A stretch of 64,000 bases of DNA from a virus. The stretch is taken from the IMG/VR virus record IMGVR_UViG_2937877337_000001, positions 9,026 to 73,025 of that record; one strand, given 5' to 3'. The notes under the pieces are model-generated. The model made no database searches, was not told the DNA's origin, and saw nothing but the letters and a program-made list of their open reading frames with translations. Position 1 is the first letter of the stretch; each line of letters opens with the position of its first letter. Shown in pieces: positions 703 through 57,629 of the stretch. Position numbers and translations under genes: made by a program.

Positions 703-1401
703 TCAGATATCCAGATCGAAATCGTCCGACTTCGGCTTGCTCGATGTGCCCGAGGTCGAAGGGCCTTCGTCGAAGCTGTCGTCGGCTTCCAGCGTGTCGA
801 AATCGTCGTCATCCACGTAGATGCCGCCGCCGCCGAGACGATCGCCGACCTGGCGCGAGCGAATTGCTTCGACCGAGCAGGTAATGCGCGGCGTGCCGCC
901 GTTCTCGGTGCCGTACCACGACACGATCACGTCGCCGTAGGTTCCATTGTAGACGACTTCGGGGATTTCGCTGACTTCGATGACGCGCTTGTTGCGATCG
1001 CGAATCTGCGGGCGCTTGAGGCCACCACTCGGCCCCTTCGCACTGACGACAATGTTGCCTTCGTAACCCTTGTAGATTTCGCCGGCATCCGTCTTGAACC
1101 GATCGCCCTTCTTGAAGGAAAGGTTATCGGGCTTGTCATCCCACAACTGCTTCCACCAGTCCTCTGGCTTCTTGAACTCGCGTCCCGCAGCCTTCATCGC
1201 GGAGATGCAGGCGGCCTTGTTGCTGTCGTAGTCCGGCGTGCCCTTTTCGAGAATGAAATTGGCGCCGTGCTTCGGCTTTGCATTCGGGTCCTTGTTCTTC
1301 TTCGGCAGCGACGCTGTATGCAGCGAGTCTGCGAAGGAGATGCGGACGTTCGTCAAGGTGACGGTTCGGCCGGTTTTGTCTTTCTCGTTTACTTTTCCCA
1401 T
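703..1401 (-). CDS. phage single-stranded DNA-binding protein, DUF2815 type, with acidic C-terminal tail (DDFDLDI)
   Basis: N-terminus MGKVNEKDKTGRTVTLTNVRISF is typical of DUF2815 phage SSBs. Gly-rich linker plus acidic C-terminal peptide. Sits in the replication module. Confidence 0.7.
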   Translation of the reverse strand: MGKVNEKDKTGRTVTLTNVRISFADSLHTASLPKKNKDPNAKPKHGANFILEKGTPDYDSNKAACISAMKAAGREFKKPEDWWKQLWDDKPDNLSFKKGDRFKTDAGEIYKGYEGNIVVSAKGPSGGLKRPQIRDRNKRVIEVSEIPEVVYNGTYGDVIVSWYGTENGGTPRITCSVEAIRSRQVGDRLGGGGIYVDDDDFDTLEADDSFDEGPSTSGTSSKPKSDDFDLDI

Positions 1402-1437: not shown

Positions 1438-2667
1438 TCAGGTTTCGGCGGTATCGAGGTCGTCAAAATCATCGTCCCACTGCACAAGTGCAGGCTTCGG
1501 ATGATCTTCTGGCACCAGCTTTGGCTTTCCCGGTGGACGAACCAGAAGGGTTTGCAGGGCCTCCCACGTCTTGGGATGACCTGCCCTTTTTCTACCCGGC
1601 TTGACGAGCTTTTCGATCTCGCCGATGCCGATGAGTTCTCGGGGCTTGTATGCCTTGTCGCCGAGTGCGGCGGTCAGCAGTAACTCACCCTTTTTGACAT
1701 CCTTGATGCGACGATCGCCAAGGTCGCCGTCGACTGCCTTCGAGCCCGGATCGGGCTTTCCATCCAGCGCGGCGCGCAGCGACTCGTCATGCAATTCGGC
1801 CAGTCTGGCACGAATGTCGGGAGCGTGCTTGACCACCAGCCAGCGGCGCTCGCCGACCAGGTTCTGCCGCTCGTAGCCGGGAATGATGGTGTTGGGCAGT
1901 TCTGGATAGGCGTCCGCCGCCATCTCCATCAGCCAGCGGTCACGCGGTGGACAGCCGCCAGGTGCCTTGCGAACTTCGCACCACTTGCAAGCTTTCTCGC
2001 TCGGCTTGAACTCGACATCGCCGGATTCAATCTTCGCGTAGACGGCCTTCATTTCCTCGCCGAACGCGAGCAGTTCGTCGAGCGTGATTTCCCAATACTT
2101 CATGCCGCCCGCGCGCGGCTGATCGATGTTGATCACGATCTTCTCGACGTGCGGGCGACCGAGGAAGTGCCACATGCCGAGGGCGTAAAGGCGCAACTGC
2201 TTGTTGCCTTTCGCGTCAACAGGAACGCCGGCCCCAAACTTCAAATCGGAGATGTAGAGCACGACGCCGGAACTGAGCGCGGTGCTTGACAGCCAGCCCG
2301 TGTCGCAGGTACCGAACTGATCCGGCAGCCATGGCGACAGGTCCACCTGGATTTCGACATGCGGCGCGCCAGTGTGCTCGCGGACCCAATCAATGCCGGT
2401 CTGCAGATGATCGGCCATCGTATCATCGACGACGTAGGTGAAACCGTCTGCGCTGATCGTGGCGCCGACGAAGTGCCGCGCATCCAGCCCGAAGACCAGA
2501 CACATCTCGCGGACTTCGTGCGCAACGGTGCCCTCGGCAGACCAATCAGACGCGTCTCGATCGCCGATTGCGCCGTCAACATGCAGCTTGTCGAGCAGCC
2601 CCACGGATGCTGTGCATGTTGACCAGCGATCGCAGCCGGAAGGGGAGAGACGCGCGTGCGAACCCAT
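1438..2667 (-). CDS. DUF2800-family PD-(D/E)XK (Cas4/RecB-like) nuclease with C-terminal Cys cluster
   Basis: 409 aa. CDRW...C near the N-terminus and CKWCEV...GGC near the C-terminus are typical of DUF2800 phage exonucleases. Acidic C-terminus DDDFDDLDTAET. Adjacent to DUF2815 SSB and PolA, as in known phage modules. Confidence 0.65.
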   Translation of the reverse strand: MGSHARLSPSGCDRWSTCTASVGLLDKLHVDGAIGDRDASDWSAEGTVAHEVREMCLVFGLDARHFVGATISADGFTYVVDDTMADHLQTGIDWVREHTGAPHVEIQVDLSPWLPDQFGTCDTGWLSSTALSSGVVLYISDLKFGAGVPVDAKGNKQLRLYALGMWHFLGRPHVEKIVINIDQPRAGGMKYWEITLDELLAFGEEMKAVYAKIESGDVEFKPSEKACKWCEVRKAPGGCPPRDRWLMEMAADAYPELPNTIIPGYERQNLVGERRWLVVKHAPDIRARLAELHDESLRAALDGKPDPGSKAVDGDLGDRRIKDVKKGELLLTAALGDKAYKPRELIGIGEIEKLVKPGRKRAGHPKTWEALQTLLVRPPGKPKLVPEDHPKPALVQWDDDFDDLDTAET

Positions 2668-4203: not shown

Positions 4204-4719
4204 TCAGAGGTCGAGGTCGTCGTTGGACTTCTTCGGCGCCTCGGTGATGTCGCCCTTGGCGATGAGCTTCGCCACCTGGTCCTTGAACAGCGGGATCGCC
4301 GATTCCATGATGTGGTCGGCTGCCGATGCCTTCTCGACATCCGGCTTCTTGATCTTCTCGTGGTTCAGCAGGTTGCGCATCTTCTCCTTGCGCGCCTCGC
4401 GTTCCTCGGGGCGATCGGTGCCGGTGATGTAGCCGGCGATCAGGTCCTTGATGCCCTCATAGGGGTTGGTGCGGTTCTCGGGATCGGTCGAAATCTGACC
4501 CTTGCCGGCATCCTCGCCCTTCGTTTCGTCCTTCTTGCCGGCGTCGTCCTTCGCCTTGTCCTTGCCCTTGCCGGTGGCGGCGACTGCGGCTGTCACCTTC
4601 TCGACGGCATCGGTGCGCAGGGACAGCAAGTCCTTGGTGGCAGCGAGAAGAGCGTTGGTGGCGGCGGTGCTTTCTTTCAGTGCGGCCGTGTGTTCGGCGA
4701 TTACAGCTTCGAGGCTCAT
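4204..4719 (-). CDS. hypothetical phage protein (171 aa), Lys/Asp-rich, C-terminus NDDLDL
   Basis: First gene of the minus-strand replication operon, leaving the divergent control region. Acidic C-terminal peptide as in SSB. Confidence 0.55.
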   Translation of the reverse strand: MSLEAVIAEHTAALKESTAATNALLAATKDLLSLRTDAVEKVTAAVAATGKGKDKAKDDAGKKDETKGEDAGKGQISTDPENRTNPYEGIKDLIAGYITGTDRPEEREARKEKMRNLLNHEKIKKPDVEKASAADHIMESAIPLFKDQVAKLIAKGDITEAPKKSNDDLDL

Positions 4720-4739: not shown

Positions 4740-4885
4740 TTGAAAATCACGATTAACGTGAATGCATGGTCGTTAAATCACGTTTAAAGTCACGTTTCAA
4801 GCCCCATGTGCAATAATTTCACGTTTAACTTGATTTTGCGGAACAGCGGCGTTAAGGTCGCCTCAAATCCAACCAAGGGGACGTG
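4740..4885. promoter_or_regulatory. divergent control region with at least 4 copies or half-sites of the TCACG(T/A)-TTAA-ACGTGA motif
   Basis: cacgattaacgtgaat / aatcacgtttaaagtcacgtttcaag / atttcacgtttaacttg lie between the minus-strand operon (start 4719) and the plus-strand operon (start 4883). Confidence 0.55.
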
Positions 4886-5227
4886 ATGGAACCGAATTCA
4901 CAGTCGGCGGAACCGAAGCCAGCCTATACCGGCCGCCCGCGCAAAGACGACAACTTCAAATTCTACGATGGCGCTTTGAACAAACTCCTGCTCGACAAGC
5001 TGCCATCGGCCTGCATCAAGTTTGGCCGCATCGACACGCTCGCGCTGGCCAAGGCCACGGGGAACGCCCGTTTCACCATCTACCGGTGGCTGAATGAGCA
5101 GAGACTTTCCAAGAATGCCATCCGGTCGCTGCTCAAGGTCTCTGCCGAGACCGAGGAACGCAAGAAAAAGGGCAAGTTGAAGAAGGACGATCTGATCCCC
5201 TTCTTCGATCTCGGCGACGACCTCTGA
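4883..5227 (+). CDS. small HTH DNA-binding protein (putative transcriptional regulator), C-terminus FFDLGDDL
   Basis: Helix-turn-helix-like segment IDTLALAKATGNARFTIYRWLNEQ. AAGGGGA ribosome-binding site. First gene after the operator-rich region. Confidence 0.55.
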   Translation: MMEPNSQSAEPKPAYTGRPRKDDNFKFYDGALNKLLLDKLPSACIKFGRIDTLALAKATGNARFTIYRWLNEQRLSKNAIRSLLKVSAETEERKKKGKLKKDDLIPFFDLGDDL

Positions 5228-5249
5228 TTCCCGCAGGGGAAGGCGTAAC

Positions 5250-7775
5250 ATGGCAAGTGCTCCCACGCTCGACAGCGTGCTTGATTCCGTCCGTCCGCTA
5301 ATCGAGGCCGGCGCGGCGCTGCATTGGTTGGTGCCGTTCGAAAAACGGCCAATCGCGAGAGATTGGTCAGCCGCAGCCGTGCAAACGGAGGCGTCGCTTC
5401 GCGCGAGCTACCGCGACAACGCCAACATCGGCATCCGGCTCGGTGAGCCGTCGAAGACCGAGGCTGGCTACCTTCATGTTTTCGATCTCGACATCCGAAA
5501 GCCCGAACTCGCCGCCGAGGCGTGGGCCGCAGTCGAGGCGCTTTGGCCCGGCGCGCGCACGCTGCCATCGGTCATCAGCGGTTCGGGCGGCGAGAGCCGC
5601 CACCTGTATTTTGTCGCCGAACAGCCATTGCGCAAGAAGACCCTGGCTCAGTCGAATGGCTTCGAGAAGCTGTGGGACGATCGGCAGCAGAAGTTCGTCG
5701 TCAAGCGCGACTGGATGATCGACCTGTTCGGCACGGGCGTCCAGGTCGTGCTGCCGCCCTCGATCCATCCCGACACCAAGCTTCCCTACCGATGGGAGCG
5801 CCCGCTCGATCTCGACATGATCGGCTTTGGCATCGGCCCAATCATTCCCGCCGAGGCGATCGAGAAATGGGGCGTGAAGACCTCCGTCGTCGAGGCCGGC
5901 GACGAGGAAGACGAACTTTTCGATCTCACCCGCTCCGAGCCAATGGACCTGGACGCGGCGCAGATCAGCGACATTCTCAAGCACATTCCCAACGACGGGG
6001 CCGGCGCCCACTATGACGACTATGTGCAGGTCGGCATGGCCTTGCATCACCAGTTCCGGGGCTCGAACGAGGGCTTCGAACGCTGGTGCGAATGGGCGAA
6101 GCAATCGGAGAAGTTTGACGCCAAGAACGCGGCTCTGCGCTGGCGTTCGTTCAGTCAGGATTCCAAGAACCCCGTCCGCATGGCGACGCTGATCCAGATC
6201 AGCCAGACCAACAAGCTCAAGGCCGAGTTCGATTTCGACGATGACGATGACGACGGCTTCGACAACCTGCCCGCTGTCATCGAGAAGAACGACCTCTCCG
6301 ATTTGCTCGGCGTGGCTGACGGCAACGATCTCTCCGATTTGCTCGGCGACGGTCCCACGTCCGCCGCGAAAGCGGACAAAAAGGACGCTGTTGATCCTGA
6401 CTGGCTGAGCAAGTTGCATCGCAACGAGGAAGGCGAGATCAAGAGCACCCTGCCCAACGTCGGCTTGATCGTCAATAATGACCAGCGGATGCGCCTGGTC
6501 GCCGCGTTCAATCAGTTCAGGCAAGAAATCGTGCTGATCGCAGAGCCGAAGCAGGCCCGAAAGAAGCGCGACTCAAGTCACGATCCGGTCAATCTGGAAG
6601 GCGAAATCTGGAAGCTCAAGGACCCGCTGAACGGCGACAACTGGACCGACAGCCACGACACAGCGATTCGCCACATCATTGAGTCCAAGACGCAGTTGAA
6701 GGGTTACGGGATCAAGGTCACTGACCGCGATCTGCGCGGTGCAATCGACATGAGCGCGCAGAAGCGCTCCTTCCACCCCGTCAAGAAGCTGCTCGCCTCC
6801 GAGACATGGGATGGCAAGCCCCGCGTTGAGAGCCTGTTCATTGATTACCTCGGCTGCGACGACAACGAGTACAACCGCCAGGCTTCGTTGATGACGTTCG
6901 TCGGCGCCGTGGCGCGCGTCATGCGGCCGGGCCACAAGTTCGACTTCGTGCCGATCCTTGAAGGCGCCCAGGGCAAGGGCAAATCCACGTTCATCGAAAT
7001 CCTCGGGTTGCAGTGGTATAACGAACTGACCGGCGACATCAGCGACCCGAAGCAGATGGTCGAAGTGATGCAGGGCTCGTGGATTTTGGAAATCGGCGAG
7101 CTTTCCTCCATGGCCCGCGCCGAAGTCAACGACCTGAAAGCCTTCGTCAGCCGCACACACGACAAGGTGCGTCTCGCCTGGGAGAAGCGAGCCAAGGAAT
7201 TCCCTCGGCAGTGCATCTTCATCGGCTCGACCAATGACCGCGAGTACCTGCGAGACCAGACCGGTGGCCGGCGCTTCTGGCCGATCGTCTGCAAGCTGGT
7301 GGGGCAGATCGACAATCCCCGGCTGCGCCGGGAAATTATGCAGGTATGGGCCGAGGCGCTGCACATCTTCCACGAGATGGAGAAGCAGTACAACGGCACC
7401 CTGCCGCTGTTCCTGACCGACCAGGCCGCCGAGCAGGCCCTCGTCATGCAGGAGAGCCGCCGCGTCGAGAGCAGTGAAGAGATGCTGGCGGGCAAGATCG
7501 AGGCGTGGCTTGACCAGCCTGTCGGCACCGACGAGGACTTCGACGATCTGGACCCGAATGCCCCGAAGACCTTCCGCAACGAGACCTCGGTTCAGCAGAT
7601 TTGGGAAGAGATGCTGCGCCGCGACGGCTCGGTCCCGCACACCGAAGCCATGAAGATCGGCAAGGCCATGCTGATCGTCGGGTGGCATCGCACCGAGGGT
7701 CCGGTTACAGCCCGAGAAATCAACAAAAAATACGGAAAGTGTCGCGTCTACGTGCGACCCGGAACTGAGATATAA
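5250..7775 (+). CDS. primase-polymerase (prim-pol N-domain) / PriCT-1 / VirE-D5-like P-loop NTPase replication initiator
   Basis: 841 aa. Prim-pol-like N-terminal region (LHWLVPFEKRPIARDW...HVFDLDI). PriCT-like HYDDYVQVGMALHHQF. Walker A GAQGKGKST and Walker B-like CIFIGSTND. Internal acidic linker with a duplicated NDLSDLLG. Confidence 0.75.
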   Translation: MASAPTLDSVLDSVRPLIEAGAALHWLVPFEKRPIARDWSAAAVQTEASLRASYRDNANIGIRLGEPSKTEAGYLHVFDLDIRKPELAAEAWAAVEALWPGARTLPSVISGSGGESRHLYFVAEQPLRKKTLAQSNGFEKLWDDRQQKFVVKRDWMIDLFGTGVQVVLPPSIHPDTKLPYRWERPLDLDMIGFGIGPIIPAEAIEKWGVKTSVVEAGDEEDELFDLTRSEPMDLDAAQISDILKHIPNDGAGAHYDDYVQVGMALHHQFRGSNEGFERWCEWAKQSEKFDAKNAALRWRSFSQDSKNPVRMATLIQISQTNKLKAEFDFDDDDDDGFDNLPAVIEKNDLSDLLGVADGNDLSDLLGDGPTSAAKADKKDAVDPDWLSKLHRNEEGEIKSTLPNVGLIVNNDQRMRLVAAFNQFRQEIVLIAEPKQARKKRDSSHDPVNLEGEIWKLKDPLNGDNWTDSHDTAIRHIIESKTQLKGYGIKVTDRDLRGAIDMSAQKRSFHPVKKLLASETWDGKPRVESLFIDYLGCDDNEYNRQASLMTFVGAVARVMRPGHKFDFVPILEGAQGKGKSTFIEILGLQWYNELTGDISDPKQMVEVMQGSWILEIGELSSMARAEVNDLKAFVSRTHDKVRLAWEKRAKEFPRQCIFIGSTNDREYLRDQTGGRRFWPIVCKLVGQIDNPRLRREIMQVWAEALHIFHEMEKQYNGTLPLFLTDQAAEQALVMQESRRVESSEEMLAGKIEAWLDQPVGTDEDFDDLDPNAPKTFRNETSVQQIWEEMLRRDGSVPHTEAMKIGKAMLIVGWHRTEGPVTAREINKKYGKCRVYVRPGTEI

Positions 7776-7796
7776 TCGATCATCGAATAGGATTGA

Positions 7797-7822
7797 ATTG
7801 ACCCGCTTCGGCGGGTTTTTTC
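7797..7822 (+). terminator. rho-independent terminator after the primase gene
   Basis: gacccgcttcggcgggtc stem followed by a T6 run. Confidence 0.6.
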
Positions 7823-7829
7823 ATGCCAA

Positions 7830-8320
7830 ATGCAATCTGTTGCATGATGGGTTCCATCGCATCTGCGCTTTTCCGCGAAATGGAATGTATTCCACTTTCT
7901 CCCCGCCATTCTCAGCCTCTCACGCTCTCAGGCGGATTCCCATATAGTTTGCAGCGGCACCTTACGACCAGTCGGCTAGGCGTATGCCTCTCCTTCAGAT
8001 CCTCCTTCTTATAAACTATATCTATTTTAGGGTGAGAAGGCTGAGAGAGTGAGACAGTACTGATTTAATTGAGCTTTTTCGCTCACCCTAGTCAAAATGA
8101 GACTGAGAATGACTGAGAAGCGGTTTTGCTGCGCCGAATTTAACCGAAATCACGTTAAGATTGAAATATTCCCATCTGCTACCCCGTTTTCGTGAGCATT
8201 CCTCATATTTCCGGGGGATTGTGAGTGATCCTCACGTTTGATCTCGTTTCTCTGCGCTGAATTTCACATTTCGCGTGAATCGCGCTCAGCGCCTCCCGCA
8301 GCCGATCGACCCACCCAGGA
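7830..8320. other. putative origin of replication: AT-rich non-coding region with iteron-like CTGAGA(A/G) repeats and an AGGGTGAG / CTCACCCT inverted repeat
   Basis: No credible ORF. tgagaaggctgagagagtgagac and aatgagactgagaatgactgagaag direct repeats. Inverted repeat about 50 bp apart at about 8028 and about 8088. Additional TTCAC motif copies at 8150-8280. Lies immediately downstream of the initiator/primase gene. Confidence 0.35.
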
Positions 8321-8625
8321 AGGACCCAAAGCCACCATGCTATTGATTTCATTGCGCTTTTCGTCGTCGATGAAGCGCGGACACAATCGATCATGCCGCC
8401 TATCGAATGTGCTAACCAATTGAATTCATTATGCAAATGTGTCCTATCCCCTGCCATGCATCATGCATCGGGCAGCGCTGCAGCATGTCAACGCGTTGAA
8501 TCCGTTGCACAAAAGGCGATTGATCCTATCGCATTTGGACCTGCCACCATGCCGGCGCGGCCGGCCTAGTTGCCACGGGGCAAAGGCTGCAGAAGCGATG
8601 CGGGATATCCCGTTTCGGGCAGCGC

Positions 8626-8710
8626 CTCGACCTGGCAGCATCGAGCACGGCAGCCTCGACCACGGCAGCGCCTCGACCACGGCAGCGCCTCGACCACGGC
8701 AGCGCCTGGC
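8626..8710. repeat. 17-bp tandem direct repeat (cgaccacggcagcgcct), 3 perfect and about 2 degenerate copies
   Basis: Read directly at 8641-8710. GC-rich. Sits in an otherwise non-coding stretch next to the AT-rich iteron region. Confidence 0.75.
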
Positions 8711-9010
8711 CGCTGGCAAGCCCGAGCACATGGCGCAATGCTACCAGGCAGCGCGGCAGCCGGCTCGGGCAGCCATGGAAGGAATCCCGCGCGCGGCCTG
8801 AGATCACATTCCCGCGCCTCGGCAGCGATAGCGCGGCACGGGCAAAAGCTGGACGCATGGCCAAGCGCAACAATGCGCCGGTAGACATTGCCCTAGCTGG
8901 CGCCGCGCCTTGGAATGAGCGCTATATCACCACGGCAAGCCCGAGCGACTTCCACGCTTCCGGCTATCGGTTCGAACGGTTGGAATAGACCGCTTGACTC
9001 GGCAGCTAGT

Positions 9011-13952: not shown

Positions 13953-14182
13953 CGGCGCTGCCATGGGATGACTTGAAAGTTTGTTTTGCGTGCGGCGACA
14001 ATACAGAACGCCTTTGGAACGCGATGGATAGCGGGCGATTGACGCTGCCAACGGGCTGGCAATTGAACGAAACCAGTATTTCTGGAGCATCTGGCTATGT
14101 CGCAATTTTCCGCGTCGACGTGCTGCCAGTTCCGGCCGATGCTTACAGGGTCAAAGCCGAATTGAGGCGCTGGACAAGATGA
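13949..14182 (+). CDS. hypothetical protein (77 aa)
   Basis: ATGA-coupled on both sides. Confidence 0.45.
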   Translation: MTALPWDDLKVCFACGDNTERLWNAMDSGRLTLPTGWQLNETSISGASGYVAIFRVDVLPVPADAYRVKAELRRWTR

Positions 14183-15333
14183 CGGCGCTGCAAATCGGCC
14201 ATGGCGTCGCTATCCCCTGGCGCTACCTGTCACGGCATATCGGCATTTTTGGCGCTACAGGAACGGGCAAGTCGACGACGCTAGGCGCCATTGCCGAGCG
14301 TTCGCCTTGCCCGGTTTTGGTTCTGGACGCGAAAGGCGATTTGGCGTCGCTCGGGCAGCATCTCTTGCGGCCGGCAATGCGCGTCGACGCCATGGGCGCC
14401 GATTTGATCGCACGCGCGCTAGACCTGAGTGAAGCGCAAGCCGGCGCCCTTCAAATCGCGCTTGCATGGGCGGAAGATTCCGGCCGCGCCGTTGCCACAC
14501 TGGCAGACTTGCGCGACCTGTTGAATGACGCCACGCGGCACGATTTAAGCCGCGACTATGGGCTGTTATCTCCCGTTTCCGTGGCTGCCGTCCAACGTGC
14601 TCTATTGCGCTTGGAACGCGGCGCCGCATGGGTCTTTCAAGACTCGCGCCATGATCCGCGCGACACGCAAGGAATCACGGTTTACGCGGCAGCCGAGTTG
14701 ACGGCGCTACCAGGTCTTTATGGCGCCTTTGTCGCTCATACGCTGGAACGGCTTTATTCCGGTCTCGGCGAAGTCGGCGACACGGCAGCGCCTGGACTCA
14801 TGGTCCTAATCGATGAGGCGCATTTGATCTTTGACGGCGCCACGGCTGCAATCGTGCGACGGATCGAACAAATCACGCGACTCATTCGATCGAAGGGAGT
14901 CGGGCTTATCTATGTCACGCAATCCCCTTCTGACTTGCCGCACATTGTCGCCGGGCAGCTTGCCACGCGGATTCAGCACGCGTTGCGCGCTTCCACGCCG
15001 CAGCATCACAAGGCGCTAAAGGCGGCTGCCGAGACCATGCCGGGCAGTATCAACGCGGCAAGCATTCTCGGGCTTGCTACCGGGCAGGCAATGGTTAGCA
15101 CGCCAGACAAGGCCGGCAAGCCGCTACCAGGTCGAGTCGTCGCAATCCAGCGCGGCCGGCTGCCATTGCACGCGGTTGATTTGCCGCCTGCCAGCGTGCC
15201 ACGGCAGCGCCTGAGACCTGGCGAGCCGAGCCGAGCGGCGCCGGCCGCGACACGTCCTAAACCGTGGTGGCATTGGCCGCTAATCCTGGCGGCCGTCCTA
15301 TGGGGACTCGTGGCGCTAGGTCTTGTGAAGTGA
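14179..15333 (+). CDS. HerA/FtsK-like (DUF87-type) P-loop ATPase with C-terminal transmembrane helix
   Basis: Walker A GIFGATGTGKSTTL. Walker B MVLIDEAHLIF. C-terminal WWHWPLILAAVLWGLVALGLVK. Confidence 0.6.
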   Translation: MTALQIGHGVAIPWRYLSRHIGIFGATGTGKSTTLGAIAERSPCPVLVLDAKGDLASLGQHLLRPAMRVDAMGADLIARALDLSEAQAGALQIALAWAEDSGRAVATLADLRDLLNDATRHDLSRDYGLLSPVSVAAVQRALLRLERGAAWVFQDSRHDPRDTQGITVYAAAELTALPGLYGAFVAHTLERLYSGLGEVGDTAAPGLMVLIDEAHLIFDGATAAIVRRIEQITRLIRSKGVGLIYVTQSPSDLPHIVAGQLATRIQHALRASTPQHHKALKAAAETMPGSINAASILGLATGQAMVSTPDKAGKPLPGRVVAIQRGRLPLHAVDLPPASVPRQRLRPGEPSRAAPAATRPKPWWHWPLILAAVLWGLVALGLVK

Positions 15334-15337
15334 ATTG

Positions 15338-15367
15338 AAGCCCGGTTGCAAGCCGGGCTTTTTCTTT
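15338..15367. terminator. bidirectional rho-independent terminator
   Basis: aagcccggttgcaagccgggcttttt hairpin between the convergent genes 14179..15333 (+) and 15377..15697 (-). Confidence 0.55.
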
Positions 15368-20380: not shown

Positions 20381-21040
20381 ATGACAATGCTTCTGAAATT
20401 GGTGCTTATATTGGCGGTGCTCGCCGCCAGCGCCTTTGGATTTGCTCATTTCACTTTGTTTGCCGTTGCCGGCCGTCGCAAATCCCTTTGGTGGGCACTT
20501 GTTTTAATTCTCTCAGCCTGTCTGCTTTCCTCTTTGGCAACGAAGCCGGCCAAAGCACAAGACACCGCGTTTCTGATCGACGGTGACATGGGCGGCGCGG
20601 TGCTGCGCTATCATGCGAAGGCCAAGATCATCGGCCGCTCCAAGGTGATCGTCGATGGCGTTTGCCTGTCAGCCTGCGCGCTGTATCTGCGCAAAGATTG
20701 GAACCTCGACATTTGCTACACGCAGGCCGCGACATTCGGCTTTCACAAGCCGTACCAGGTGCTCGACAACGGCGCCATTCTGACCGGAATTTCGGCCATT
20801 ACAACGGCTGACGCCGATTGGCGCCGCGAGTTCTATGATCAAATGCCTGCCGGCATCAGGGCCATGCTCATCGGCAAGCAGATTCCCGAGCCCGCCGCTG
20901 GCGATCCGCCCGACCGCTTCGTCTACATCAAGGCCCGCGACTTGGCCGGCGTGCTCAAGGCGTGCCCGAAGAATTGGGCGGCGAAGTACAAGACGCTCGT
21001 CGATGTTCACACCATGACCATCGGCACGGGAGCGCAGTGA
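20381..21040 (+). CDS. exported/membrane-anchored protein (219 aa), possible ClpP/crotonase-fold
   Basis: Two N-terminal hydrophobic segments. IDGDMG...GVCLSACALYL reminiscent of ClpP-class folds. Weak call. Confidence 0.5.
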   Translation: MTMLLKLVLILAVLAASAFGFAHFTLFAVAGRRKSLWWALVLILSACLLSSLATKPAKAQDTAFLIDGDMGGAVLRYHAKAKIIGRSKVIVDGVCLSACALYLRKDWNLDICYTQAATFGFHKPYQVLDNGAILTGISAITTADADWRREFYDQMPAGIRAMLIGKQIPEPAAGDPPDRFVYIKARDLAGVLKACPKNWAAKYKTLVDVHTMTIGTGAQ

Positions 21041-21216
21041 TGTTCAGGCTCAAAATCACACCACCAGACGTTCTGAATTTGGCGTCCGCCGTCATGGCCG
21101 AATGCCAGCAGCCGAGACCGAGCTATCACCAGGCAAACGGATGGGCCTGCAAGCTTTGGTTCGACGAGAGCAACGCTCTCGCTGATCGCATCATGTTCGA
21201 GAGCGGAAACCGATGA
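21040..21216 (+). CDS. hypothetical protein (58 aa)
   Basis: TGATG overlap with the upstream gene. Within the frame of ORF 20962..21216. Confidence 0.4.
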   Translation: MFRLKITPPDVLNLASAVMAECQQPRPSYHQANGWACKLWFDESNALADRIMFESGNR

Positions 21217-21725
21217 CCTGCATCGTCGCAATCGTCCATCAGGGCGCCGTCTATGTCGGCGGCGACAGCGCGGCCAGCACCGATGTCGCAGTGGAGACCC
21301 GTCGCAACGCCAAGGTCTTCAACAACGGCGACTATCTGTTCGGCTACACCGGTTCCATCCGCGTCGGCCAGCAACTGGAATACTCGGAGGCGGTGCAGCC
21401 CCTGCCGGAGGGCACCGATCTCGTGCGCCATTTGGTCGTTCACCTGGTGCCGCTGCTGCAGAAGCTCGCAGGCAAGGAAGGCATCGACGAACTGATCGTC
21501 GCTCACGGCGATCGGCTCTGCAAGATCGCGGCAGACTACTCGGTCGCCGACTATCCCGAGCACGCGGCGGCCGGTAGCGGCGAACAATATGCCATTGGAA
21601 ACCTGTTCGGCAGCCACGATGCGCCCGTGGTGCGGATACGCCGCGCTTTGGCCGCAGCCGAAGCCAACTGCCCCGGCGTCCGTGCGCCGTTCGTTATCAA
21701 ATCAACGCAAAGGAGACAGTCATGA
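21213..21725 (+). CDS. HslV / proteasome-beta-like Ntn-hydrolase (170 aa)
   Basis: MTCIVAIVHQGAVYVGGDSAAS aligns with HslV [21 protein letters not shown] (Thr2 nucleophile). K in AKVF aligns with Lys33. GSGEQYA aligns with GSGGPYA. Confidence 0.5.
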   Translation: MTCIVAIVHQGAVYVGGDSAASTDVAVETRRNAKVFNNGDYLFGYTGSIRVGQQLEYSEAVQPLPEGTDLVRHLVVHLVPLLQKLAGKEGIDELIVAHGDRLCKIAADYSVADYPEHAAAGSGEQYAIGNLFGSHDAPVVRIRRALAAAEANCPGVRAPFVIKSTQRRQS

Positions 21726-21850
21726 AAGAGCTTTTGGAATTCTACGTCTCGGGCTTCGGCACCTGGGCCGGCCTGACCATCGGTCTCGCCATCGTGTGCG
21801 GCGGCGTCCGAAACTCGTTCTGCTTTCTGCTGAATGTGTGGCGCTCATGA
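21722..21850 (+). CDS. small membrane protein (42 aa), not in ORF track
   Basis: AAAGGAGA ribosome-binding site. MKELLEFYVSGFGTWAGLTIGLAIVCGG TM helix. ATGA-coupled both sides. Confidence 0.35.
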   Translation: MKELLEFYVSGFGTWAGLTIGLAIVCGGVRNSFCFLLNVWRS

Positions 21851-22497
21851 GCGAAGCATTGCTCCTACACCCGTCGCGCCATCCGACAATTCCAATCTTC
21901 AACTTCGAACGGGAGCCCCGTAACATGCATTTCATTCTCGATTGCGACGGCGTGCTGCTCGACTGGACGCGCGGCTTCCGGCATTGGGTCTTTGCCAACC
22001 ACGGAATCAAGCCGAGCGCCACCGGCCCACGTTCCTGGTCGCTGTTCAAATGGCTGGGCCAGCCCGAGGCGCGCTGTTTCGAACTGATCCAGGAATTCAA
22101 CGCGTCGCAGGCATTCGGCGAACTTTATCCGCTGGACGGTGCCAAGGATGCTGTCGCCAAGCTCAAGGCGGCCGGCCACAAGCTGACCGTGCTGACAAGC
22201 TGCTCGGACGATCCTTTTGCGATCAAGCGCCGCAAGCAGAACCTCGATCGCGAGTTCGACGGCGCCCTCGATCGCGTCATCTGCCTCGCCCTTCGCGAGA
22301 GCAAGTCCGCCTGGCTCGAAGTGCTGCGCGGCGGCATCTGGATCGAGGACAACTACAAGAACGCCATGATGGGCGTAGAGGCCGGCCACAAGACGATCAT
22401 GTTGCGGCAGTCGCACAATCGCGACGACGAACGCAGCACCGATCCCCGCATCCACTGGGTCGATGATTGGCGTCCGGTGATTTCACTTTTTAGTTGA
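21847..22497 (+). CDS. 5'(3')-deoxyribonucleotidase-like HAD-superfamily hydrolase (NT5C-like)
   Basis: MHFILDCDGVLLDW gives the HAD DxDG(V/T) motif I in the NT5C configuration. Start at 21847 (ATGA-coupled) or 21925. Confidence 0.5.
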   Translation: MSEALLLHPSRHPTIPIFNFEREPRNMHFILDCDGVLLDWTRGFRHWVFANHGIKPSATGPRSWSLFKWLGQPEARCFELIQEFNASQAFGELYPLDGAKDAVAKLKAAGHKLTVLTSCSDDPFAIKRRKQNLDREFDGALDRVICLALRESKSAWLEVLRGGIWIEDNYKNAMMGVEAGHKTIMLRQSHNRDDERSTDPRIHWVDDWRPVISLFS

Positions 22498-22541: not shown

Positions 22542-23111
22542 ATGCCAAACACCGATATCACCTTCTTCCACCCCGGCCTGAGCGAACTCGAACTGGCCGC
22601 ATTCGACGGACTGCGCGCCGCGCAGAAGCTCGCTCACGAGACGGCCACCAACGCCGGCTGGTACGTCGATCGCGAGACCGGCAAGCCGATCGAGCGCAAC
22701 TTCGGCGAAGTGATCGCGCTCATGCACTCGGAACTGTCCGAAGCGCTTGAGGCCGATCGCAAGGGCAAGCGTCGGGACGACAAACTGCCCCATCGCGGAG
22801 CGGTGGAGGTCGAGTTCAGCGACGGCATCATTCGCATTCTGGACACCGCTGCCGCGAACCGCATCGACGTGGCGTCGGCGATGATCCACTGCATTCGGCA
22901 TCTGGCGCTCTACGGCGATCTGCCGAAGCGGTTGCCGGGCGTGGATCAGTGCGCGGTCAACTTCGCCAATGCCATCGTTCGCATTCTCGAAGTGTCGCAG
23001 GCAAACGGCTACGACCAGGCCGGCTCCGTGCTCGACAAAAATGCCTACAACCGCACCCGTGCGGATCACCAGCTTGCCAACCGGCAGGCCGAGGGCGGGA
23101 AGCGTTACTGA
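22542..23111 (+). CDS. MazG-like nucleoside triphosphate pyrophosphohydrolase
   Basis: EVIALMHSELSEALEADRKG all-alpha NTP-PPase signature (E-x2-E ... E-x2-E/D). Confidence 0.55.
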   Translation: MPNTDITFFHPGLSELELAAFDGLRAAQKLAHETATNAGWYVDRETGKPIERNFGEVIALMHSELSEALEADRKGKRRDDKLPHRGAVEVEFSDGIIRILDTAAANRIDVASAMIHCIRHLALYGDLPKRLPGVDQCAVNFANAIVRILEVSQANGYDQAGSVLDKNAYNRTRADHQLANRQAEGGKRY

Positions 23112-25827: not shown

Positions 25828-26064
25828 CTACTCAGCCCGCCAAACCTTGGCCTCTTTCGCGGCAGCTTCAAACGCCAGGCGCGCCTCATCTACTGTGTGT
25901 TTGCCCTCCATCACGCCGTAGCAGATCGGATAGGCTGCCTTCAGCTTCGGGCCGACCTTCGGCCACGTCCGCATCTGCTCGATCGCCGTCTCGACCGACT
26001 TCACACCAAGCGCATGGCCGGTGGCGGTGTCCTTCACGTAAACGGGCGGCCAGAACCAAAGCAT
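25828..26064 (-). CDS. DUF982-like small protein (78 aa), antisense moron
   Basis: MLWFWPPVYVKDTATGHALGVKSVETAIEQMRTWPKVGPKLKAAYPICYG resembles the Rhizobiales DUF982 family. Opposite strand. Confidence 0.45.
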   Translation of the reverse strand: MLWFWPPVYVKDTATGHALGVKSVETAIEQMRTWPKVGPKLKAAYPICYGVMEGKHTVDEARLAFEAAAKEAKVWRAE

Positions 26065-26139: not shown

Positions 26140-26952
26140 ATGAACACGGTAATTGTTTACGGACCACAGGGCTGCGGCAAGACGACAAACGCGCAGGCGC
26201 TGCTGAAGCACTTCGGATGCGACAAGCTGCGTGACGATTGGACTTTATCCCGGCACCTGACCGAAGGCGCATTGCATCTTACGTCTGACGAAATGTCGGC
26301 AGAGGCAACGACGTTTCGTCAACTTTTCAGCAACGTTCGCGCGAAGCTGGTTTCATTCGATGAGGCCGTGGCCGAGATCAACGCTATGCTTGCGAAACCG
26401 ACTGATGGCTCTAAAGCCAGCAACCCAAAGGATTCTGTCGGAGCCCGCAAGTGGCGCCAGTACGCCACAGTGCCAGCCACGGTCATCGCCGAACTCGGCG
26501 TCGCGATGCTCGAAGGCGCGGCAAAATACGGGCGTCACAACTACCGCGTAGCCGGCGTCCGCGCCTCGGTGTACGTCGATGCCGCGAAGGGTCATATCGA
26601 CCAGTGGTGGGAGGGCGAGGACTATGACCCCGACGTTCCCGGCCAACGCCTGTCCCACATCACAAAGGCGATCGCCAGCCTGGTCGTCCTGCGCGATGCG
26701 ATGATCCAGGATATGCTGAATGACGATCGGCCGCCGAAGGCGAAACTCGACAAGGTGCGGGCTGACATGCAGGTCACGGTCGAAGCGATTCTGGACAAGT
26801 ACCCCGAGCCAAAGGCGCCCTTCACCGAGATCGGCGTGAAGAACGGCCAGGGTGTAACCGAGGTCAGGGTCGACGCCAACATCCATCTGACCGATATGAA
26901 CTTCAATAAGGTGATAAGCGGCATCCTCGTACCAGGCAAGGGGATGGCGTGA
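26140..26952 (+). CDS. P-loop NTPase fused to a phage nucleotide-pyrophosphohydrolase-like domain (KYGRHNYR motif)
   Basis: N-terminal VIVYGPQGCGKTT Walker A. C-terminal GARKWRQYATVPATVIAELG...GAAKYGRHNYR resembles phage dATP/dGTP-pyrophosphohydrolase-type domains. Weak. Confidence 0.5.
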   Translation: MNTVIVYGPQGCGKTTNAQALLKHFGCDKLRDDWTLSRHLTEGALHLTSDEMSAEATTFRQLFSNVRAKLVSFDEAVAEINAMLAKPTDGSKASNPKDSVGARKWRQYATVPATVIAELGVAMLEGAAKYGRHNYRVAGVRASVYVDAAKGHIDQWWEGEDYDPDVPGQRLSHITKAIASLVVLRDAMIQDMLNDDRPPKAKLDKVRADMQVTVEAILDKYPEPKAPFTEIGVKNGQGVTEVRVDANIHLTDMNFNKVISGILVPGKGMA

Positions 26953-27250: not shown

Positions 27251-27532
27251 ATGCCATATCCCAAGAACAGCGACGACGACGATATCACCGAGACCAGCCA
27301 GACAGTCGCGGCCGGTCAGCTTCGCGCTCTCATCGAGCGCATCGAGCGGCTTGAGGAAGAAAAGAAGACCATCGCCGACGACATCAAGGAAATCTACGCG
27401 GAGGCAAAGGGGACCGGTTTCGACACGGCTGCGATCCGCGTGCTCGTCAGATTGCGCAAGAAGGATCAGGCTGAGCGCCAGGAGGCCGAGGCGATCCTTG
27501 ATCTCTACAAGGCCGCGCTCGGCATGGTCTGA
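27251..27532 (+). CDS. DUF2312/GapR-like nucleoid-associated DNA-binding protein
   Basis: [37 protein letters not shown]...[12 protein letters not shown]...EAILDLY matches the conserved DUF2312 (UPF0335, Caulobacter GapR) core. Confidence 0.65.
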
Positions 27533-27573: not shown

Positions 27574-27963
27574 ATGAAGCTCGGCGAACTGCGCGCGGCG
27601 ATCCGCAAGACGAAGGAAACCCCGTTCGTCAACATCTACCCCTTCCCCGGCACCGACAAGGGCTTCCGCTTCGCCTTGCAGAAGACGCCACTGCTCGCCG
27701 AACTCGAAGTCGTCTATCCGGGCGGCAAGGCCGTGGAAACCCACCTGGAATTCGACGTGGCGACGGGCAAGCTTTTCTGTCCTACCTACGAGTCGTACAT
27801 GGGCACCACGAAGGAGGAAACGGCCGCCGCCTTCGAAAATTCGACCGTGCAGCCCGGTTCCGACTCGAGCGACGACGATCTCGACCTCGACCTCGGCGAT
27901 GTGCCGGTACGCGGCGTGAGCCCCGTCGAACGCAGCAACGATCTCGACGACCTGTTGGTGTGA
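27574..27963 (+). CDS. hypothetical protein (129 aa), C-terminus SNDLDDLLV
   Basis: AGGAG-like ribosome-binding site. Acidic motif. Confidence 0.5.
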   Translation: MKLGELRAAIRKTKETPFVNIYPFPGTDKGFRFALQKTPLLAELEVVYPGGKAVETHLEFDVATGKLFCPTYESYMGTTKEETAAAFENSTVQPGSDSSDDDLDLDLGDVPVRGVSPVERSNDLDDLLV

Positions 27964-27966
27964 TCC

Positions 27967-28362
27967 ATGACCGACGCTGAACTCGGTCTCAAGCTCGTCA
28001 CGGCGCTGCGCTCGATCTCGGACTCGCGGGATGCTCGCGGCGCCCCGGTGAGAGGCAAGCTCACCAGCCTCGCCTTGAACATCGGGCCGGAAGGCTGGCA
28101 GGCCATTTCCCAGTTCTGGTTGACCAACGACTGGAACGTTTGCGTTGGCAAAGACCCGGCCGCTTGCCTGCTCGACGTGCTGACCAAGCAGCCCGATCTG
28201 TCGGAGCCCTACGATCCGAAGAAGCGGCTCATCGCTGCGGCGAAGCCGGTGCTTCCGGCGAAGGAGATCATGGTCGCCGGCAAGGCTGCGATGAGCGAGG
28301 CGGCAGCGGTGTTCCCGCCACCTGCGTCAAGCGCCAACGACCTGGACGATTTGCTTGTCTGA
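27967..28362 (+). CDS. hypothetical protein (131 aa), C-terminus ANDLDDLLV
   Basis: Same C-terminal heptapeptide as the upstream gene. Confidence 0.5.
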   Translation: MTDAELGLKLVTALRSISDSRDARGAPVRGKLTSLALNIGPEGWQAISQFWLTNDWNVCVGKDPAACLLDVLTKQPDLSEPYDPKKRLIAAAKPVLPAKEIMVAGKAAMSEAAAVFPPPASSANDLDDLLV

Positions 28363-28630: not shown

Positions 28631-30034
28631 ATGGGCGGCAGGGTAACACTACATGCGGGCGACAACCGTGTCAGCTTGCGCCGCCTTATCGATCAGGGCG
28701 TCCGCGTCCATTCGGTTGTGTGTGATCCGCCCTACGCCTTGACCAGCATCACCAAGCGCTTCGGCAAGAAGGGCTCGGCCTGCGCGCGCACCGAAGGCAA
28801 CGACGGCAGTTTCGCGCGGCTGTCGGGTGGCTTCATGGGAAAAATTTGGGATGCCACCGGCATCGAGCGCGATCCTGAATTCTGGAAGCTTGTCTACGAA
28901 ATCCTGCTGCCGGGTGGCTACGTGTTCGCCTTCTCTGGTGCCCGCACTGGCCACTGGCAGGCTTGCGCCATGGAAATAGCCGGCTTCATCATGCACCCGA
29001 TGCACGGATGGGTGTACGGCCAAGGCTGGCCAAAGCCGACCTACATAAAGGGCGTTCCTGAATGGGAAGGATGGGGCTACGGCACGCAATCGCAAAAGCC
29101 GGCGCTTGAGCCGATCTACCTCGGCCAGCGCCCCTTCAGCACCAAGACTGCCATGCCGAGCATCCTCAAGCACGGTGTCGGCGCCTTCAACATAAAGGGC
29201 TGCACCGTTGGCGATGGCAGCGAAAGCATCTCGCGCGATGGCGAAGCCGCCATGGATCGTCGCTACAACGAGAGCGGTGCAACGGACTTCGCGGCGCTGC
29301 CTGGTGCTGCCCGTGGCGGCTCACCGGAAGGGCGCGGGCCGGCCAACCTGATCCTGGACGGCTCGCCGTCCGTCGTAGACCTGTTCCCTGTCACGCGCAG
29401 CGGCAAGCCTGGTGTGATGCGCAAGGGCCGCAACGACGGAGCCACATACGGCGCCGAGAGCCGCGCGCCAGGCACAGCGATGACCGGCTACGGCGACGAA
29501 GGCTCGAACGCCAGGTTCTTCCACCAGTTCGCGCCGACCGAGGAAGACTACCAGTGGGCGATCGATGCCGGCCGGATCTCCGACGACCGTGGCGACGCCA
29601 TCATTTACAACGCAAAGGCGAACAAGGCTGACCGCGCGGCATCCAAGCATCCGACCGTCAAGCCGATCGCCCTGCTGCAATACCTCATTCGCCACATCAC
29701 CCCGGCCGGTGGCGTCGTGCTCGATATGTTTGCCGGGTCAGGCACGACCGCCGAGGCCGCGAAGCGCGAGGGGTTCGACTGCATCCTCATGGAAGCGGAA
29801 CCAGAATACCTTGAATTTTTACACACCCGCTTTCATTTTGCGAGTGATACTGATATAGGAATAAATGCCTTGGCGCAGAAAGGAGCAACTGATGAAAATT
29901 TCATCAATGCCGATTTATGTCTGATTGACATTCTTGGTGAAAACGTGTTGTCGACGCGAGACGGCTTTGAGCCTGTCGCGCAGCCCGGATCGTTAGATTT
30001 CGCAGGCCACGATCTGACAGCCTTGTTGTATTAA
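28631..30034 (+). CDS. beta-class DNA methyltransferase (DPPY motif; N6-adenine likely), with low-GC C-terminal extension
   Basis: Motif IV VVCDPPY precedes motif I LDMFAGSGTT; HPTVKPIALLQ. Motif copy at 28605-28628 directly upstream. Confidence 0.75.
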   Translation: MGGRVTLHAGDNRVSLRRLIDQGVRVHSVVCDPPYALTSITKRFGKKGSACARTEGNDGSFARLSGGFMGKIWDATGIERDPEFWKLVYEILLPGGYVFAFSGARTGHWQACAMEIAGFIMHPMHGWVYGQGWPKPTYIKGVPEWEGWGYGTQSQKPALEPIYLGQRPFSTKTAMPSILKHGVGAFNIKGCTVGDGSESISRDGEAAMDRRYNESGATDFAALPGAARGGSPEGRGPANLILDGSPSVVDLFPVTRSGKPGVMRKGRNDGATYGAESRAPGTAMTGYGDEGSNARFFHQFAPTEEDYQWAIDAGRISDDRGDAIIYNAKANKADRAASKHPTVKPIALLQYLIRHITPAGGVVLDMFAGSGTTAEAAKREGFDCILMEAEPEYLEFLHTRFHFASDTDIGINALAQKGATDENFINADLCLIDILGENVLSTRDGFEPVAQPGSLDFAGHDLTALLY

Positions 30035-57405: not shown

Positions 57406-57617
57406 CCCCACACCGGCCTCAACGGACGCGTCGGGCCGGTGCAGCCTGCGACTTCCTGTTCGAGTTCGCGGATATAGGCTTTCAAACGGCTGGCGTTGGC
57501 TGGCGTGTAGCGAACCGATTCGCCATTGGCGTCGCGCACTTCCACCGCCGACGTGCCGGTTTGCAGTCGGTGGTAGGCGGTCTTGGCTTCGGCAAGAAGG
57601 TCGGCGGTGGTCGCCAT
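57402..57617 (-). CDS. head-tail joining protein, gpW-like
   Basis: 71 aa between TerL and portal. Confidence 0.55.
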   Translation of the reverse strand: MATTADLLAEAKTAYHRLQTGTSAVEVRDANGESVRYTPANASRLKAYIRELEQEVAGCTGPTRPLRPVWG

Positions 57618-57629
57618 CGGTCATCCAGC

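Follow-up and report, generated by a model that had tools for sequence, protein, structure and literature searches.

The gene at 21213..21725 of the stretch of viral DNA analysed here (64,000 nucleotides, hereafter called the window) encodes a proteasome-like peptidase that is an ordinary member of a known and widespread orphan family of proteasome homologues. The window is a prophage, since its phage genes sit inside a 760-kb Mesorhizobium contig. It is fairly likely that the product is a catalytically competent, compact proteasome homologue, fitting the AAH group and PHROG 1040, which is carried by the Mesorhizobium prophage and acts by the steps proposed below. By analogy with its structural relatives, this N-terminal-threonine peptidase probably forms rings and works without an unfoldase of its own.

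The peptidase gene and its prophage setting

The open reading frame starts with an ATG, which is the earliest start codon past the preceding stop, and the protein sequence opens with MTCIVAIVHQGAVYVGGDSAAS. A database protein of the same 170 residues, WP_189524468.1 ("hypothetical protein [unclassified Mesorhizobium]"), shows 100% identity to it and is encoded on a 759,813-bp contig of the Mesorhizobium assembly GCA_004792105.1. The GC content at the three codon positions (0.68/0.44/0.77) is coding-like. These three facts indicate that the ORF, first pointed out in an earlier note on the sequence of this DNA, is genuine. The description of the gene as phage-encoded was also correct, the peptidase gene being surrounded by structural and replication genes of a prophage integrated in a bacterial contig (Table 1). 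Apart from the genes listed in the table, the minus strand carries those for tail proteins, a major tail protein, a tail terminator, neck proteins and a head decoration protein, and exonucleases are also encoded in the window. tRNA genes were not found in the 64 kb.

Table 1. Positions of the features discussed in the text, numbered along the window; for a C-terminal tail, the position is that of the gene whose protein ends in it
Feature	Position	Strand	Evidence or remarks
Tail SDDFDLDI	703..1401	-	T7 gp2.5-like single-strand-binding/annealing protein, phrog_112, E=4e-25
Tail DDDFDDLDTAET	1438..2667	-	Exonuclease
Tail SNDDLDL	4204..4719	-	
Tail DDLIPFFDLGDDL	4883..5227	+	
Primase-helicase	5250..7775		
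HerA/FtsK-type P-loop ATPase	14179..15333		5.9 kb upstream of the peptidase gene; PF05872, E=6e-71
Upstream 58-aa ORF	21040..21216	+	Stop overlaps the peptidase start (ATGA); no family match
Proteasome/HslV-like N-terminal-threonine hydrolase gene, 170 aa	21213..21725	+	ORF, PHROG 1040, AlphaFold, Foldseek
Thr2 codon, predicted nucleophile (residue 1 after removal of the start Met, no propeptide)	21216..21218	+	T2 in 150/150
Asp18 codon (proteasome Asp17), in G-G-D-S motif	21264..21266	+	150/150; aligns with HslV GGD
Lys34 codon (proteasome Lys33)	21312..21314	+	150/150; aligns with the HslV catalytic Lys
G44-Y-T-G-S48 segment	21342..21356	+	G44 and S48 each 150/150
G121-S-G-E-Q-Y-A127, counterpart of HslV G-S-G-G-x-Y-A (proteasome Ser129 region)	21573..21593	+	Aligned to HslV GSGG
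Downstream 42-aa hydrophobic ORF	21722..21850	+	Start overlaps the peptidase stop (ATGA)
NT5C/HAD-type 5'(3')-deoxyribonucleotidase-like gene	21847..22497	+	PF06941 NT5C, E=8.2e-7
MazG-like nucleotide pyrophosphatase gene	22542..23111	+	phrog_5658, 3301, 9236 "pyrophosphatase", E down to 1.2e-42
Nucleotide-metabolism P-loop protein, 270 aa	26140..26952		4.4 kb downstream of the peptidase gene; Walker A at residue 8
Tail SNDLDDLLV	27574..27963	+	
Tail ANDLDDLLV	27967..28362	+	
Tape measure	45424..49221	-	
Major head protein	52857..53951	-	
Head maturation protease, lambda-C/S49-type	54488..55990	-	
Portal	55726..57624	-	
Large terminase	57706..59889	-	

The peptidase gene belongs to a co-directional array of overlapping, translationally coupled genes and stands beside genes of nucleotide metabolism. 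The short hydrophobic ORF that follows it overlaps in turn the NT5C-type gene; it is missing from the gene calls of the contig (L001), and copies that are 71% and 67% identical occupy the same place in L005 and L006, the prophages closest to this one. In the NT5C-type gene, conservation with these two prophages begins near residue 17-19 counted from the start at 21847, and if the gene began at 21589, as in the database call, it would share 137 nt with the peptidase gene. A promoter or terminator belonging to the peptidase gene itself, as in a moron-like unit, was searched for and nothing above chance was obtained.

The earlier note had suggested that the peptidase could process phage proteins. 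As regards the head proteins this is unlikely, since the prophage possesses a head maturation protease of the lambda-C/S49 type; a role of the peptidase as prohead protease was rejected for this reason.

Active site and conservation

The hallmarks of HslV, namely an N-terminal Thr together with Asp17, Lys33, an oxyanion Gly and a G-S-G segment, are all found in the peptidase. The conservation of these residues was followed in 150 distinct homologues coming from 163 related loci (80 from viral contigs, 80 from genomes and three from phages). T2, D18, K34, G44, S48, G121 and G123 are identical in every one of the 150 sequences. Position 122, within the G-S-G segment, is more variable and can be occupied by Cys (100/150), Ser (24/150) or Val (17/150). 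In an alignment of 29 sequences, the invariant residues include M1, T2, G16, G17, D18, S19, K34, G44, S48, R50, G121 and G129, among others. According to our own reading of the alignment, Gly44 corresponds to the glycine of the oxyanion hole (Gly45 in HslV, Gly47 in the proteasome), and its segment to the GFAG segment of HslV. A second set of residues, namely Ser48, Arg50, Arg141 and the V-R-x-P-F motif at 156-160, is specific to the family and invariant or nearly so.

A Met immediately precedes T2 in 140/150 homologues. A propeptide is absent, because Thr2 comes directly after the start Met and nearly all of the best 150 of the 3,017 family representatives mentioned below align from residue 1.

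The three sequence features on which the earlier note had relied, Thr at position 2, Lys33 and the GSG-x2-YA segment, are therefore all present: T2, K34 (which becomes K33 when Thr is counted as 1) and G121-S-G-E-Q-Y-A127. Its reading would have fallen if the catalytic residues were not conserved or if the fold were not that of an Ntn hydrolase. With the key residues identical in 150/150 sequences, the observation survives the first of these checks.

The same conservation bears on the idea of an inactive decoy that titrates or blocks the HslU of the host without any cleavage. Such a decoy would be compatible with the general resemblance to HslV and nothing else, whereas catalytic residues that are invariant in 150 sequences speak for selection on catalysis. 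It is thus highly improbable.

Fold and structural relatives

The AlphaFold model, which covers the monomer of the peptidase, reached a pLDDT of 94.3 and a pTM of 0.90. It displays the four-layer alpha-beta-beta-alpha fold of proteasomes, with helices at 49-56, 70-86, 124-132 and 138-152 and a last strand at 161-164; no extra strand or helix (S12/H5) is present at the C-terminus. When the model was compared with the PDB by means of Foldseek, the best match was BPH (5ovs, TMq 0.80, E=2.7e-10), followed by HslV from several species and 20S beta subunits. A total of 1,155 PDB structures matched at E<=0.001, the top 50 being all BPH, HslV or 20S subunits (TMq 0.67-0.82). The family profile, searched against the PDB, aligned over its full length with HslV of Thermotoga (E=3.6e-6) and BPH of Cupriavidus (E=5.7e-6), and 30 viral structures with TM values up to 0.90 were retrieved from BFVD. 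Model and profile thus give a proteasome-beta/HslV/BPH fold, so that the second check is passed as well. The proposal of a proteasome-beta/HslV-like Ntn hydrolase with a full catalytic constellation is upheld by the fold together with the conserved residues.

The peptidase and HslV share the fold, a similar length, a Met-Thr start without propeptide, the catalytic residues and the GSG-x2-YA segment, but they are only about 20-22% identical in structural alignments. The identity to BPH (PDB 5ovs and 5ovu), the best structural match, is 18-19%. The BPH of Cupriavidus also begins with T-C. However, BPH has an elongated acidic inner pore loop, while the loop that connects helix 70-86 with strand 94-98 in the peptidase is short (seven residues, A-G-K-E-G-I-D). 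This shortness distinguishes the Mesorhizobium prophage clade, which lacks about 10-12 residues that most relatives carry in the loop after helix 2. Proteins of this clade are 161-170 aa long through this deletion, in comparison with about 177-190 aa in the relatives.

In the abstract of the work on BPH (PMC5777263), epoxomicin is described as bound at the N-terminal nucleophile, a classical proteasome mechanism is deduced from this binding, and BPH is presented as lacking a partner unfoldase; no substrate is reported there.

Family membership and distribution

The peptidase matches the HMM of PHROG 1040, "peptidase HslV family", over residues 1-157 (E=1.5e-14). With the Pfam Proteasome model (PF00227) it scores 17.6 bits, below the gathering cut-off of 22.4, and the match is restricted to the N-terminal 48 residues; two homologues have a precomputed PF00227 match. 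The equivalog models of HslV, TIGR03692 and NF003964, were missed by a wide margin (12.2 bits against a cut-off of 157.75 and 13.1 bits against 137, respectively). An assignment as HslV orthologue was rejected on account of these scores (12-13 bits versus cut-offs of 137-158) and of BPH being equally close. Thus, of the earlier label "Phage-encoded HslV / proteasome-beta-like Ntn hydrolase", the proteasome-like Ntn fold stands but HslV itself does not, the shortfall against the equivalog cut-offs being more than 120 bits.

Homologues are very numerous. A word-indexed search yielded 687 of them, and an exhaustive profile search recovered 3,017 cluster representatives (50% identity) at E<=1e-30 and 6,507 at E<=1e-10. 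Viral contigs contributed 493 stretches with a homologue. Among the 80 genome loci, as counted from the titles of the records, about 37 are alphaproteobacterial and about 28 actinobacterial. By tblastn, homologues were located in 155 records of isolated phages, in many of which it bears a name such as "peptidase HslV family", "Ntn hydrolase" or "proteasome". Examples are Psychrobacter phage D'Alembert ("Ntn_hydrolase-like protein"), Geobacillus virus E3, a Moorella phage, Ochrobactrum phage vB_OspM_OC ("proteosome component protein"), Vibrio and Aeromonas phages, and more than 100 T5-like phages of Salmonella and Escherichia. Phages of Firmicutes are included in the distribution. The family members from isolated phages are only 26-36% identical to the peptidase. 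The T5-like protein gp061 of Salmonella phage S132 is a member of the family too (hhalign probability 99.5). Members of PHROG 1040, such as S132 gp061, the protein of Geobacillus virus E3 and DAL_45 of Psychrobacter phage D'Alembert, share with the peptidase the motifs MT[CA]IV, GGDS/GDR, KVF, G[FY]TSS and G-C/S-G and, like it, sit among early or nucleotide-metabolism genes.

This is a separate orphan family that has already been described (PMC8665760) and annotated in phage records. Fuchs, Alva and Lupas catalogued 22 new proteasome homologues in 2021 (PMC8665760). In that work the homologues of group I radiate from BPH and include the AAH and PPH clusters; PPH, the proteasome homologue of phages and their hosts, has about 140 aa and lacks helix H2. 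An assignment of the peptidase to PPH was rejected in view of its 170 aa and of a second helix (70-86) that is confidently predicted. The protein fits the AAH group of these authors, and not PPH, because H1-H4 are all present, no propeptide or extension exists and the family spreads through alphaproteobacteria and actinobacteria; this placement relies on architecture and taxonomic distribution, not on AAH reference sequences. In architecture, it is a compact subunit with H1-H4, an M-T start, no propeptide and no S12/H5, and Thr1, Asp17, Lys33 and the Gly are intact, as in AAH. In distribution, the peptidase family shares with AAH a centre in Alphaproteobacteria and Actinobacteria to which phages, including those of Firmicutes, are added, and also the lack of a co-occurring AAA+ partner (PMC8665760). 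The listing of 2021 comprised 240 nr90 sequences for AAH, as against the 3,017 representatives (E<=1e-30) recovered here for the family of the peptidase.

No functional data for any member of the family were found in the literature searched, and the PADLOC models of anti-phage defence gave no match at E<=0.01 for the peptidase or its immediate neighbours.

The unfoldase question

HslV is paired with an adjacent hslU, whereas no hslU adjoins the peptidase gene, either here or, as far as the families listed are concerned, in the 163 related loci. In the 64-kb window no AAA+ unfoldase was found. Walker A motifs are confined in the window to the primase-helicase, the HerA/FtsK-type ATPase, the nucleotide-metabolism protein encoded at 26140..26952 and the terminase. 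The earlier statement that no AAA+ unfoldase is adjacent is accordingly borne out, the P-loop proteins of the window being all of other kinds. That note had cited the product of 14179..15333 as an unrelated ATPase and as the nearest one; it is indeed unrelated, being HerA/FtsK-type and not an unfoldase, but it is not the nearest P-loop gene, since 26140..26952 is closer.

Across the 163 loci, the ORFs situated at up to 6 kb from the homologue were clustered. Walker A motifs were present in 39 clusters of neighbours, one of which is the peptidase family itself; representatives of the other 38 were scanned against Pfam. The families listed for them are ABC transporters, terminases, DnaB, clamp loader, IstB and the like. 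A Clp/HslU-type family does not appear among the 25 families listed, of a total of 60 Pfam families, for these Walker-A neighbours (163 loci, 6 kb), and PF00004 was touched, among the families listed, by only two of the 38 representatives scanned. The missing unfoldase is the known rule of this orphan family and is not peculiar to the Mesorhizobium prophage: neither a co-occurring AAA+ partner nor an informative gene context was found for the catalogued proteasome homologues (PMC8665760).

An unfoldase might instead be borrowed from the host. HslV-like hexameric rings of the peptidase would dock on the HslU of Mesorhizobium, or on another host AAA+ protein, creating a hybrid ATP-dependent protease of altered specificity. 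The similarity of the profile to HslV along its full length (E=3.6e-6) and the finding of no phage-encoded unfoldase are consistent with such a borrowing. The loop after helix 2, which in the prophage clade is as short as in HslV and in most relatives is longer, is a weak indication in the same direction, a short pore loop being tied to gating by HslU (PMC8665760). However, BPH, to which the structure is closest, is heptameric and lacks an unfoldase, and the HslV equivalog models are missed by more than 120 bits. Moreover, the family extends to Actinobacteria, for which Table 1 of PMC8665760 gives no HslV mark, and no hybrid complex has been reported. Capture of a host unfoldase is thus unlikely, and a peptidase that works without an unfoldase of its own is the reading followed here.

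Gene neighbourhood of the family

In the 163 loci, no neighbour at up to 6 kb from the homologue is shared beyond what is explained by genus-level synteny or by a block of small prophages, so that no conserved partner gene emerged. Genus-level synteny was seen in the loci of Azospirillum and Dactylosporangium. For instance, by our own reading of the sequence, the Azospirillum homologue is located in a chromosomal block together with genes for an ElbB-like protein, NAD synthetase and glutamyl-tRNA synthetase. In small prophages, the homologue is found just upstream of a generic block of terminase, portal, prohead protease and capsid genes. In larger phages it lies in the early region among nucleotide-metabolism genes: near genes for a MazG-like protein and NMN adenylyltransferase in the Ochrobactrum phage, and near those for thymidylate synthase and RNase H in the T5-like phage. 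The neighbours that the peptidase gene has in the window were seen again only in L005 and L006; NT5C recurs in only 2/163 loci and a MazG-like gene in only 4/163.

The 42-aa ORF downstream of the peptidase gene and a 77-aa ORF in Azospirillum had suggested the idea of a membrane partner. A small membrane protein is encoded downstream of the homologue in 4/158 loci, in comparison with 63/2,457 for other genes. No enrichment is thus apparent at these strict thresholds, which missed both of the cases that had prompted the idea.

Different settings of the gene could reflect a cargo function, in which a bacterial, stress-related peptidase would benefit the lysogen and have no role in the phage cycle. 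The conserved chromosomal surroundings of the Azospirillum and Dactylosporangium homologues, with genes of housekeeping type, agree with this, as does the fact that no phage link was found in Actinobacteria (PMC8665760). Nevertheless, the gene studied here forms part of a phage gene array read in one direction, its start and stop codons overlap those of its neighbours, and the search for a separate promoter or terminator gave nothing above chance. In addition, the family is represented in the 493 viral-contig stretches and 155 isolated phage genomes, including those of strictly lytic T5-like phages. A cargo gene is therefore a distinctly improbable explanation.

The neighbours have also to be considered with regard to a specific, non-degradative Ntn enzyme. 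According to this alternative, the protein would work as a monomer or small oligomer, as an amidase, transpeptidase or ligase directed at one protein or at a small-molecule amide connected with nucleotide or DNA modification. There is a monomeric ligase among the proteasome homologues, and Ntn hydrolases use many amide substrates (PMC8665760). The nucleotide-metabolism genes that accompany the homologue here (NT5C, MazG-like), in the Ochrobactrum phage and in the T5-like phage could be understood in this way, and so could the (near-)invariant residues that are the family's own (Ser48, Arg50, Arg141 and V-R-x-P-F). On the other hand, no neighbour is conserved family-wide, as the low counts of NT5C and MazG-like genes illustrate, the substrate-covering insertion typical of connectase, which lies between strands 3 and 4 (PMC8665760), is absent from the secondary structure of the model, and the fold closely matches that of ring-forming proteases. 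This alternative is rather unlikely, and a peptidase that probably forms rings continues to be preferred.

Acidic C-terminal tails

Six proteins of the window end in acidic-hydrophobic tails (Table 1). In T7, gp2.5 and the helicase-primase contact the DNA polymerase through their acidic C-termini, which serve as contact motifs of the replisome. Degradation tags are read in known systems by an unfoldase or an adaptor and not by the peptidase core, as in ClpXP and HslUV. The suggestion that the peptidase could read the acidic tags shared by these proteins is without support, in view of one tail being carried by a gp2.5-like single-strand-binding protein and another by an exonuclease, and of peptidase cores not being tag readers. 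By analogy with T7, the tails more likely represent a replisome-contact motif, which is a better lead than a peptidase tag; this reading is preferred because one of them sits on the gp2.5-like protein and another on the exonuclease.

Proposed mode of action and biological meaning

The chemistry and the ring steps of the proposed mechanism are taken from the proteasome and HslV and from BPH, for which epoxomicin binding and the lack of an unfoldase are described (PMC5777263). Removal of the start Met by the methionine aminopeptidase of the host would expose Thr1. The hydroxyl of this Thr would be activated by its free amino group, Lys33 and Asp17, and would then attack the peptide (amide) bond, as happens in HslV and the 20S proteasome. 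The subunits would probably assemble into stacked rings like those of HslV (2x6) and BPH (2x7), which would admit only unfolded chains or peptides to the active sites. The peptidase may be active early or midway through infection or induction, with proteins of the host or of the phage as its targets, and proteolysis would proceed either without ATP or with a borrowed host unfoldase. Proteasome homologues can also be monomeric ligases, as is the case of connectase (PMC8665760).

A more speculative role, which we regard as doubtful, is that of a free-standing proteasome-like protease which, assembled into a ring and either alone or with a captured host unfoldase such as HslU, would remove particular host proteins (for instance, those of defence or stress) early in infection, serving takeover or counter-defence. 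If this were true, the thousands of copies in phages and prophages would represent a widespread viral strategy of proteolysis.

With respect to annotation, "hypothetical protein" can be replaced by AAH-type / PHROG 1040 proteasome homologue, the name HslV being unsuitable. The question is one for the whole family: which role stand-alone proteasome homologues play in phages, in lytic T5 relatives and prophages alike. A tractable member, for which a T5-like phage is preferable to the Mesorhizobium prophage, could decide between ATP-independent proteolysis and the hijacking of a host unfoldase.

The peptidase family

Members of the Mesorhizobium prophage clade of the peptidase family (161-170 aa) lack about 10-12 residues of the loop that follows helix 2 (columns 95-107 of alignment A1, which was built from the family members). 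These residues are present in nearly all other members, with the consensus GG-x-A...N-x-x-E-x-GG, and the corresponding loop of the window protein comprises residues 87-93. If a ring assembly forms, this loop would line its pore.

In Azospirillum, the peptidase homologue is found within a conserved chromosomal block (approximately 5200..9000; loci L096, L101, L150, L153, L159 and about 13 more). From our reading of the sequences, we take the gene just upstream to be ElbB/DJ-1-like and the one just downstream to encode a 77-aa membrane protein, with NAD synthetase and glutamyl-tRNA synthetase encoded nearby. The Azospirillum homologue looks like a resident cellular gene and not prophage cargo.

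Exposure of an N-terminal threonine nucleophile requires deformylation and removal of the methionine. In Vibrio phage henriette 12B8, a peptide deformylase gene (1633..2130 of locus L165) is located two genes upstream of the proteasome homologue; this is one case and may be a coincidence.

Genes surrounding the peptidase gene

Between the peptidase gene and the NT5C-like gene lies a 42-aa hydrophobic ORF that overlaps the stop of the former and the probable start of the latter. This ORF is conserved in the two closest prophages, L005 and L006 (67-71% identity), but is missing among the gene calls returned for the contig of the window. These calls place the NT5C start at 21589 (21589..22497, +), which produces a 137-nt overlap with the peptidase gene; the true start is probably 21847.

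Features of the window
Feature	Coordinates	Strand	Tail	Remarks
T7 gp2.5-like SSB/annealing protein	703..1401	-	SDDFDLDI	
Exonuclease	1438..2667	-	DDDFDDLDTAET	
	4204..4719	-	SNDDLDL	
	4883..5227	+	DDLIPFFDLGDDL	
Short HerA/FtsK-type ATPase	14179..15333	+		384 aa; HerA_C E=6e-71
Terminator-like hairpin	15337..15361			11 pairs
Hydrophobic ORF	21722..21850	+		42 aa
NT5C-type deoxyribonucleotidase	21847..22497	+		probable start
MazG-like pyrophosphatase	22542..23111	+		
DUF982	25828..26064	-		Pfam mark on L001 (window's contig)
N-terminal P-loop protein	26140..26952			270 aa; matches dGTP_diPhyd_N and dATP/dGTP pyrophosphohydrolase families
GapR-type DNA-binding protein	27251..27532	+		PF10073, Pfam mark on L001
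	27574..27963	+	SNDLDDLLV	129 aa
	27967..28362	+	ANDLDDLLV	131 aa
N6/N4 DNA methyltransferase	28631..30034			

The HerA/FtsK-type ATPase also matches the PADLOC models 'mad8' (E=9e-17) and HerA, and directly 3' of its gene lies the strongest terminator-like hairpin of the scanned region. The DUF982 gene lies inside an otherwise co-directional + strand array but runs opposite to it; the GapR-type gene is located in this array too.

Acidic tails and nucleotide metabolism

Six window proteins carry similar acidic-hydrophobic C-terminal tails, two of them being encoded by neighbouring ORFs of like size (129 and 131 aa) whose products gave no family match. These tails, which the earlier note had called acidic tags, look like a common motif for docking onto a replication hub, not like a tag for degradation.

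Another group of window genes, arranged in a run, concerns nucleotides and DNA modification; it codes for the deoxyribonucleotidase, the MazG-like pyrophosphatase, the P-loop protein and the methyltransferase. Taken together, these four genes give a hint that dNTP pools are manipulated, or the viral DNA modified, by the phage.
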